From Cystobasidiomycetes sp. EMM_F5 (Eukaryota): 64,000 nucleotides of DNA. The notes beneath the pieces were generated by a model. It was not told the origin of the DNA, did no database searches, and was given only the letters and a program-made list of their open reading frames with translations. Position 1 is the stretch's first letter. Each line of letters opens with the position of its first letter. The stretch covers positions 1 through 64,000 of the forward strand of contig JBPGPT010000054.1 of assembly GCA_051047955.1 (NCBI GenBank), read 5' to 3'. Shown here piece after piece: positions 21,750-23,994 of this stretch. A program made the translations under genes and the position numbers.

Positions 21750-23994
21750 TCATGGAGAATAGCGGAAAGCCTTGTTCTCGCGGTCCGTCATGTCCTTCAA
21801 TCCTGAGACAATCTGACTGGTACGCGCTTCTGCGCTATCCAGTGTCGGATCATTGAGTGCCGCCTTGTCCCTTCGCTTGTTTTCGAGCGTCATCAAGCTC
21901 CAGCTTGCCCAGTAGCAGATTACGAGCGCAATCTGGAAACACATGACTGTCAGTAAGCCCGTGTGATACGTCGGCGCCTCATTAGCGAGGAAGGCGAAGG
22001 GTATGACGATGTTTGATACGCATTGGGCAATGAAGATGAGCGAGGAGACAGTAGTTTTCTTAGAAGCGCCAGCAAAGTTGCAGCCGACGACTGAAAGAAT
22101 CGTTGTGAATGAGCCTGCGAAAGGATCAAGCGACAGGATTGGTACAATTGTCAGTCTGCGCCTCATTTCCAGACAGTATTCAGAATTTTGACGCTTACAA
22201 TTGTTGCTGAACCAAGTAACAATTTGAGCACAAGAGAATGTCGTCAGCTGTCGTCGCTATATCTGCACAGAGTGTTAAATGCCCTTACAGTGCAATCATA
22301 TACATCATGCCCAACAATAGATTGCGGTTCTGAGGCGTAGGATAGTGTGTGTAGACGACCGCGGTAGCAGCCACAACACAACAAGCGGCCACGCTGAGCA
22401 TAGGTTGCTTGAGATTGCGGAAAGTCTTCGTAAAGCTGGCGAGACCAGTGACAAGCAAACAGACGACGGCCTGGATTGCGAAGGACGGCGTCGAGAGGAG
22501 GATCGTTCGAAGTTGATCAAAGCCGAGGCCAGCAATGAGTAGACCTTGGAAATTGGTAACGACAGCTCCTCCAGACTGACTGAGGAAGAGAGTCATGACG
22601 ACCCTGTGCGAACAAAGTCAGTAACGACCCTCGACCCATATCATCACACTTACAACCACACTCGAATATCGGTAAGTGCTTCCCAGCATTGCGACCACTT
22701 CCATGTCGAATTCTTGATACCAGTCTGACTTCGAGCGACTCGCTCGACTGCAATGGCTCTTTCGCGAGTATTTAACCAAGGCGTGTTGGCTGGATTATCC
22801 GGTACAAGCCACCACATAATGACTCCAGTCAGGAAAGTGAGAATGCCAAGAAGGAGAAAGATAAGCCTCCACGGTTGGAGACTGGTTCCTGTAGCGTGGC
22901 CCAGACCTAAAAAGGATGCAGAGGTCAGGGAGTGGGAATGGGTACGAAGCTAGAATACGGTGATACTTACCATAGAAGATAACCAACATAGGAATGGGCA
23001 GGAGACCATTTGTCAAAGTCCAGAGGCCGAATCGCCATGGCTGCTCTTGCTGTCGGTAAAATCGGCCCGTGAGGATTGTAAAGCCCGGGCTTAAACAGCT
23101 CTCTGTCAGCCCCAGACAGAACCTAGCAATCGCAACGCCTGTGAAGTCTTTAACTCCCAACATCGCCAAAATGGTTATGGCCCAAGCCATGGTCATGATC
23201 GACAGGAATTTGCCCATGTGAAGCTTCTGCATCGCCAGCAGGGACGGATATGTTCCTACTAGATAGCCGAAATAGAACTGAAGTTTACATTCCATCGCGA
23301 TTTATTCGATGTACGAGCAAGAGAACAGATTGAAAAGCAGAAAGAAGTTAATAACTGCTCGAAGCGGTGTTGAAGATGACAAAGAGGGCGCTTACCAGAC
23401 TGCCCACAATTGTATCGCGGTTTATTCGAGGTACAGGGCAAGAGAACGAATTGACAAGCAGAGTGAACTCAATGACTGCTCGAAGTGGTGTTCAGGATGA
23501 CAGAGAGGGCCCTTACCTGACAGCCCACGAGTATTGTGTGCCAACGAGATTAAGATCTGTCTTCAAGCCGAAGACGGCGGCGTTTCCAAGGGCTAGCCAC
23601 AAAAAAATTTACCACCGTCAGCTAGTAGCCGCGGCCATGTGAATATAAGTCGTACGCACCAGACTTGTCGACGAATTGTATTCCACACGTCCACGCCATG
23701 ATTGGTAGAAGCCGCCAATCGATTTTGCGCAAGACCCTCTTCTCTGTATAATCGGCTGAAAAGTCAGTCGGGAGAGTTCAGATCAGAGAATGAGTATAGT
23801 GGGACTTATTCATCTTCTGTAAAATCCAAATTCTGGCCTTTGAGTGCTTGACCTGCATCGTCGCCCTCGAGCTCGCTGTCTTCGAGGATCATGGGCATGG
23901 CATGCTCCCGGCCGAGCTCGGTATGCCCGATCTTCTCGTCCATCTTGGAGGTAGCATCAGTGGATGCGGAGGAGTCCAAACGATTCAAGACCAT
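21750..23994 (-). CDS. MFS transporter, DAL5/allantoate permease (anion:cation symporter) family
   Basis: RKIDWRLLP, YSWAVSLFYFGYL (via a 4-nt exon), RFCLGLTE, PDNPANTPWL, NFAGASKK, EAPTY..G and DMTDRENKAFRY. Confidence 0.92.
23294..23533. repeat. ~120-bp direct tandem duplication forming two homologous introns in the MFS gene
   Basis: 23294-23395 aligns to 23414-23516 at roughly 80-85% identity by hand alignment; the similarity extends into the adjacent exon sequence. Confidence 0.9.

Follow-up and report, generated by a model that had tools for sequence, protein, structure and literature searches.

Twin introns around a predicted 4-nt micro-exon in a basidiomycete transporter gene: probable origin by tandem duplication across a donor junction

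A transporter gene of Cystobasidiomycetes sp. EMM_F5 carries two neighbouring introns of similar sequence, A and B, which are separated by an exon of only four nucleotides, TCTG. We propose, with a probability of about 70%, that a tandem duplication spanning a donor site produced the second intron together with the 4-nt exon, which the gene would now require. The proposal is supported by the position of the repeat, which starts in the upstream exon and stops short of the acceptor, by the intact reading frame of the gene, and by the paralogues, none of which has two introns at this place.

Results

Structure of the host gene

The gene lies in the window, by which we mean the whole 64,000-nt stretch of DNA that was analyzed, from contig C204 of an assembly of 253 contigs and 18.3 Mb. 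A kinesin-3 exon gave 120 listed matches with identities of 61-66%, the named ones being basidiomycetes from all three subphyla, and no close relative of this basidiomycete is among the matches listed. The gene model was obtained with our own spliced aligner, using a profile of six near homologues and with splice sites not supplied. Under these conditions the aligner returned the A/TCTG/B structure, and the frame is open throughout once the gene is spliced with eight introns. Two exons gave MFS_1 Pfam matches that stayed under the curated cut-off, and the nearest homologues are fungal MFS transporters, one of them named as an ACS-family allantoate permease. With both the domain and the family homology present, the membership in the DAL5 family that had been proposed from a residue pattern is upheld, and we annotate the gene as a putative MFS transporter of the allantoate-permease (DAL5/ACS) type. 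The features are as follows.

21750..23994, minus strand: MFS_1 transporter gene, predicted allantoate-permease (DAL5/ACS) type, nine exons and eight introns, from spliced alignment, Pfam and homologue names
23994, minus strand: start codon of the MFS gene, read from the sequence, as the alignment starts only at 23901
23517..23592, minus strand: exon 3, 76 nt, with duplication copy 1 beginning at its final 12 nt (23528-23517)
23400..23516, minus strand: intron A, 117 nt, phase 2, GT-AG (GTAAGG...CAG), its last 8 nt resembling the end of exon 3
23396..23399, minus strand: micro-exon TCTG, 4 nt, which finishes a Ser codon and encodes Leu
23278..23395, minus strand: intron B, 118 nt, phase 0, GT-AG (GTAAGC...CAG)
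22971..23277, minus strand: exon 5, 307 nt, starting with F-Y-F-G-Y

Similarity of introns A and B

Re-reading of the sequence gave the coordinates, lengths and ends of intron A, TCTG and intron B exactly as in the original prediction. The arrangement is thereby confirmed in the DNA, and its splicing is predicted. Global alignment of the two introns yielded 94 identical columns of 120 (78%) and a score of 153, compared to 24.8 ± 7.9 in 1000 shuffles. Within the homologous part, identity holds at 91 of the 109 positions aligned (83%, two gap columns, K2P 0.19), in agreement with the 80-85% over about 100 nt estimated beforehand. The 18 differences comprise 11 transitions and 7 transversions, numbers too small for an assessment of RIP-like bias. 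When all 8911 intron pairs of the gene family in the genome were compared, the A/B pair scored 129 and the next best pair 30. The introns had also been described as about twice the local typical length, and this holds as well, the other family introns (n = 132) having a median of 60 nt (interquartile range 55-65), with at least 100 nt in five of them.

Predicted need for the micro-exon

Skipping of TCTG shifts the reading frame, and retention of either intron introduces stops. The claim that only the inclusion of TCTG keeps the frame went too far: 311 splice forms keep it (five single-intron forms and 306 other or equal two-intron forms), and the TCTG form scores highest. Against a profile of 152 homologues this form reached 188.9 bits, the next one 184.6 bits, and the best single-intron form 174.4 bits. 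The runner-up, 4.3 bits behind, requires a GC donor and a GAG acceptor, and among the top 15 forms by score the TCTG form alone combines GTAAG donors with CAG acceptors at both introns. In an alignment of the 152 homologues, from which seven were left out for end gaps, the segment is exactly 12 residues long in 144 of 145, 13 residues in the remaining one, and shorter in none. By these measures the TCTG form is the best candidate for the splice form in use.

The coding sequence also bears a record of constraint. In a model of neutral decay at half the A/B distance, which presumes equal mutation rates in exon and intron, about 4.7 stops are expected in the 1503-nt coding sequence, whereas none was observed, an outcome seen in 0.9% of 2000 simulated runs. 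About 14 indels would be expected in the 1503-nt aligned coding sequence, at a rate taken from the two gap columns, and again none was observed. As the reading frame survived the divergence of the introns, selection appears to have acted after the duplication, and the absence of stops and indels relative to the neutral expectation suggests that the gene yielded a correct mRNA over most of the period following that event. Protein conservation and selection together thus point to the inclusion of TCTG in the mRNA.

It is unlikely, although this is the best of the competing explanations, that the duplication is real and the TCTG form does not work. In that case 244 nt would be removed from a weaker GTCAGG donor at 23521 with the loss of three residues, or the gene would be a recent pseudogene. 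Such a single-intron form is in frame, and the branch signals of A and B are weak (see below); against it stand the scores (174.4 vs. 188.9 bits), the lack of any shorter segment among the 145 homologues, and the preservation of the GTAAG donor and the CAG acceptor in each intron despite 17% divergence of the intron bodies. The possibility of a recent death of the gene is raised by intron 1, which has no GT donor at the junction position of the homologues. A candidate for this intron is the following.

23746..23809, minus strand: intron 1 (64 nt), candidate U2-type AT-AC intron with the donor ATAAGT, a branch site CTGAC and an acceptor at the first AC after the branch site

This candidate restores the residue count of the homologues exactly, which argues against a dead gene, and gives a profile score of 1403, compared to 1352 for the best GT/GC-AG alternative, which drops 10 residues. 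Its donor is U2-like apart from the AT, and is the sole AT donor among the 132 family introns. A genome search for the minor-spliceosome RNAs U6atac and U12 gave no match, but its controls likewise gave none, so that it carries no weight either way. AT-AC accounts for 0.019% of the splice sites annotated in fungi (PMC7072748), and U2-dependent AT-AC introns are known (PMC1557818). The alternative is that the GT donor of intron 1 was lost and that the gene died recently.

The weakness of the branch signals was assessed in the same set of introns. It had been noted that neither A nor B has an obvious CTRAY near its acceptor; we confirmed that the motif is absent from both, while 82 of the 132 other introns contain it and 124 of the 132 contain YTRA. 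In intron B, TTAAC lies some 71 nt upstream of the acceptor, with TTGAG in register in intron A, and the AG-free run before the acceptor extends over 66 nt in A and 75 nt in B (median 21.5 nt). A best branch score as low as that of B was found in 2 of the 132 other introns, and one as low as that of A in 26 of 132, with a matrix seeded on CTRA by which TTAAC is penalized. These observations fit a distant putative branch point and the use of the first AG in both introns. The U2 snRNA was found in the genome, and its 5′ part carries GTGTAGTA, which we take to be the standard branch-pairing sequence. This U2 snRNA (L025:1501-1742, contig C68) measures 242 nt against a model of 192 positions, and hence has an insertion of about 50 nt.

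Extent of the copied unit

The similarity of the two introns is part of a tandem repeat that covers the intron and crosses the splice boundary, beginning in exon 3.

23408..23528, minus strand: first copy of the tandem repeat (period 121), made up of 12 exon nt and about 109 nt from intron A
23287..23407, minus strand: tandem repeat copy 2, the end of intron A, the micro-exon and about 109 nt of intron B

The 12 nt upstream of donor A and those upstream of donor B are identical at 10 positions, a value attained by 2 of 17424 control pairs. This substantiates the reported resemblance of the end of intron A plus TCTG to the end of the upstream exon. The match ends upstream of these 12 exon nucleotides, and at the other side it is lost 6-9 nt before the acceptors. 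No duplicated exon sequence above the control level was found on the 3′ side, where the acceptor end of B was compared with the exon end and with the end of A (27 of 137 and 29 of 137 control intron ends, respectively, score as high); the duplicated exon sequence is confined to 12 nt on the 5′ side. Tandem Repeats Finder does not report the period-121 repeat. The copied unit thus consists of an exon end, a donor and an intron body without its acceptor, which points to a tandem duplication at the DNA level rather than to the copying of an excised intron. Taken with the single introns of the paralogues described below, the exon homology, its stop before the acceptor and the period of 121 support the original proposal that an exon-intron junction was duplicated, giving rise to a new intron and a micro-exon.

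An explanation about as improbable as a non-working TCTG form, and if anything slightly more so, is that only the intron was copied, via RNA, to a site 4 nt away, by reverse splicing or retrohoming, or that two older introns on either side of an old micro-exon were homogenized by gene conversion. Introns A and B do begin in register at the donor, and half of the known same-gene intron duplications have been ascribed, as a possibility, to transposition within a transcript (PMC3609843). However, a copy of the intron as a unit should match up to the acceptor and not into the exon, whereas here 12 exon bases take part in the match and the last 6-9 nt fail. Neither route finds support in the paralogues, since two introns at this site occur in 0 of 14.

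Paralogues and ancestral state

Eight of the 14 paralogues have one intron within the segment that corresponds to P0001 residues 112-124, and none has two, which fits a single ancestral intron, the paralogues serving as a proxy for orthologues of sister species. These counts omit L014 as a near-duplicate of L012, and the introns of distant paralogues were called automatically, with possible errors. The eight introns occupy eight different positions. Such a spread of positions or phases within residues 112-124 may mark a hot spot at which introns slide or are gained in this transporter family. In paralogue L013 the intron lies exactly at site A, and no paralogue has an intron at site B. P0002 has no intron at the A/B site and is too distant, at only 58% identity, to polarize the change. 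A metagenome scan gave 247 pattern matches, among them one locus, an intronless 1801-nt contig (P0001, 66%), which is probably a cDNA.

Several other features of the family were recorded. The transporter copies L012 (contig C193) and L014 (contig C228) are near-identical, an in-frame stop in L012 corresponding to Trp in L014, and may be alleles, a recent duplicate or redundant assembly. L011 (contig C13) has no introns amid an intron-rich family and is possibly a retrocopy or a transferred gene. Exons of 4, 7, 8 and 9 nt occur among the 120 internal exons of the family, and a second micro-exon is present in the same gene.

22199..22206, minus strand: second micro-exon of the MFS gene, 8 nt, between dissimilar introns of 82 and 84 nt

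The introns flanking the 8-nt exon resemble A and B in their first 7-8 nt. We considered them as an older twin pair and rejected this, the local score ranking 3672 of 8911 and the similarity being at the level of chance.

Proposed course of the duplication

If the second intron arose by tandem duplication across the donor junction, the starting point would have been a single ancestral intron at this place. A local duplication of about 121-125 nt would have taken in the exon's final bases together with the donor and the bulk of the intron, leaving the acceptor out. The upstream copy would have retained its donor, and probably its branch region, and would have recruited an acceptor in the copied exon bases, where CAG spans the Val-Ser codons. 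The four bases between the recruited acceptor and the second donor would then have become the new exon. With a compensating 4-nt change the inclusion of TCTG would come into frame, so that two introns would be spliced and the ancestral protein length kept.

The sequence around the junctions offers a possible source for such a change. The exon end and the spliced junction have a 4-base periodicity, CTGT CAGT CTG, and removal of one 4-nt block from the spliced junction yields each of the present junctions without any substitution. Two orders of events could lead to this state. In the first, the old intron was at site B and each copy lost one 4-base unit: the inclusion of TCTG would add four bases, a loss of four bases from exon 3 would correct this, and the second loss, inside intron A, would be neutral. 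In the second, site A held the old intron, the duplication produced an exon-less AG/GT junction, and both acceptors then shifted by 4 nt, which would need about four placed changes. Within the duplication explanation we lean toward the first order on grounds of economy, and give the second a little less than an even chance. The intron of L013 at site A, with none at site B in any paralogue, leans toward the second order, although the eight paralogues use eight positions. A more specific reading, that the locus preserves a record of the birth of an obligatory micro-exon, in which a junction duplication was followed by the loss of one 4-base unit per copy that locked the inclusion, is offered tentatively, as less likely than not.

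Copy number in the genome

The original prediction had allowed for an introner-like event and had proposed a genome search with the intron as the query, in which only two copies would indicate a local duplication. This was the outcome. A DNA search of the genome with the intron, in which the best candidates only were scored and for which the assembly may be incomplete, returned one locus. Two 21-nt patterns searched without mismatches gave two copies only, A and B; with up to three mismatches they gave these two copies and one 3-mismatch match each, compared to 3 and 0 for reversed controls. The folding z-scores of A and B relative to 200 base shuffles were +0.03 and +0.56. We also scanned four 200-kb blocks together with the window, in total 864 kb or about 4.7% of the assembly, for recurrence, and no second twin-intron pair was found in these 864 kb. 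Among the 3398 donor pairs scored, A/B alone was above 27. The scan gave 15 near-tandem regions, and two besides A/B were inspected in sequence. One of them (L047:4900-6200, contig C112 at about 415-416 kb, minus strand) contains repeated exon-intron units with a period of 143-163 nt that code for a Cys-rich repeat, and is an ordinary internal duplication that lengthens the protein. The other (L092:9430-9710, contig C35 at about 169.4-169.7 kb) is a two-copy tandem repeat of 128 nt without twin donors.

These data bear on the notion that A and B are introners or introner-like elements inserted twice, 4 nt apart. The two introns share with introner-like elements a length of about twice that of regular introns (PMC3609843). 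In contrast, introners occur in many copies in unrelated genes and have a stable secondary structure, whereas A and B are two copies at one locus, their 21-nt patterns are at control level beyond these two copies, they fold no better than shuffles, and no other twin exists within the 864 kb. As only A and B were found in these searches of the assembly, the introner explanation is largely refuted. Least probable of all is an assembly artefact, already thought unlikely in the original prediction: two sequencing runs each gave only one short contig, identical to the window and outside the A/B junction, but the copies differ at 18 positions and by two gaps, and a single copy would put the gene out of frame.

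Discussion

Duplication of introns within a gene is already known. Among fungi, same-gene duplications (SGD) account for 82 introns in 11 of 24 species, and segmental duplication is the source of half of these introns (Collemare, van der Burgt, de Wit 2013, PMC3609843). Introns A and B share with them the similarity of copies within one gene only and an ordinary folding energy, and, with both predicted to be spliced, they count at 83% identity as similar copies in the same gene only. Segmental SGD copies exon sequence too, as here, but flanks the intron with duplicated exon at both ends, whereas A and B have 12 nt on the 5′ side only and the protein is not lengthened. SGD introns are also of ordinary length, whereas A and B are twice the median and have a 4-nt exon between them (PMC3609843). 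In its working the pair resembles a segmental duplication, with a geometry that is one-sided.

The intron gain described for a potato RdRp gene is close in mechanism (Ma, Lan, Niu 2016, PMC4974935). As proposed here, the duplication extended over one boundary, the signals of the parent intron were mostly inherited, and one splice site was recruited from the exon. The potato case had the acceptor side copied and a donor recruited; A and B are its mirror image, with the donor side copied, an acceptor apparently recruited and a micro-exon left over. The potato case rests on RNA-seq and outgroup genomes, while A and B are known from the DNA of one genome. In the account of these authors, gained introns with an identifiable source are few, and the copying of a pre-existing intron is counted by some as multiplication and not creation (PMC4974935). 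In Zymoseptoria, tandem duplication within a gene makes up under 1% of the gains of single introns (cited in PMC4457414). The Rogers model, in which duplication of an exonic AG/GT yields an intron (PMC3443670), likewise derives an intron from tandem DNA duplication with the protein unchanged; its source is purely exonic, whereas the source of A/B is mostly an existing intron.

Tiny exons and adjoining introns are both on record in fungi. In Coprinopsis cinerea, internal exons of at most 15 nt occur in 1,165 gene models, and ones of at most 3 nt in 89 (PMC12230235); frame-essential tiny exons like TCTG are common there, while for TCTG the probable source can still be seen. Stwintrons also consist of two adjoining U2 introns in a fungal gene, but in them one intron splits a splice signal of the other, whereas A and B have their own donors and acceptors with exon bases between (PMC8469720). 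A stwintron was accordingly rejected for A and B, both being complete and the sole new GT formed after removal of A giving an out-of-frame product. The literature searched, mainly the main text of open-access papers, yielded no account in which a junction duplication gives rise to a micro-exon. The twist relative to known same-gene intron duplication is a 4-nt exon that is predicted to be obligatory and comes without gain of protein.

A and B form a single locus in one genome, and the general picture of intron gain is unchanged. The value of the locus lies in a source and breakpoints that are still readable, and in the tie between an intron gain and the origin of a 4-nt exon. The A/TCTG/B segment also provides a compact minigene for the question of how a 4-nt exon is dealt with by a fungal spliceosome when the introns on either side lack CTRAY. 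If the proposed course is true, one exon end was split between two exons with the protein unchanged, and junction duplication followed by a compensating deletion may generally yield the frame-essential micro-exons of basidiomycetes, its trace being mostly erased by divergence.
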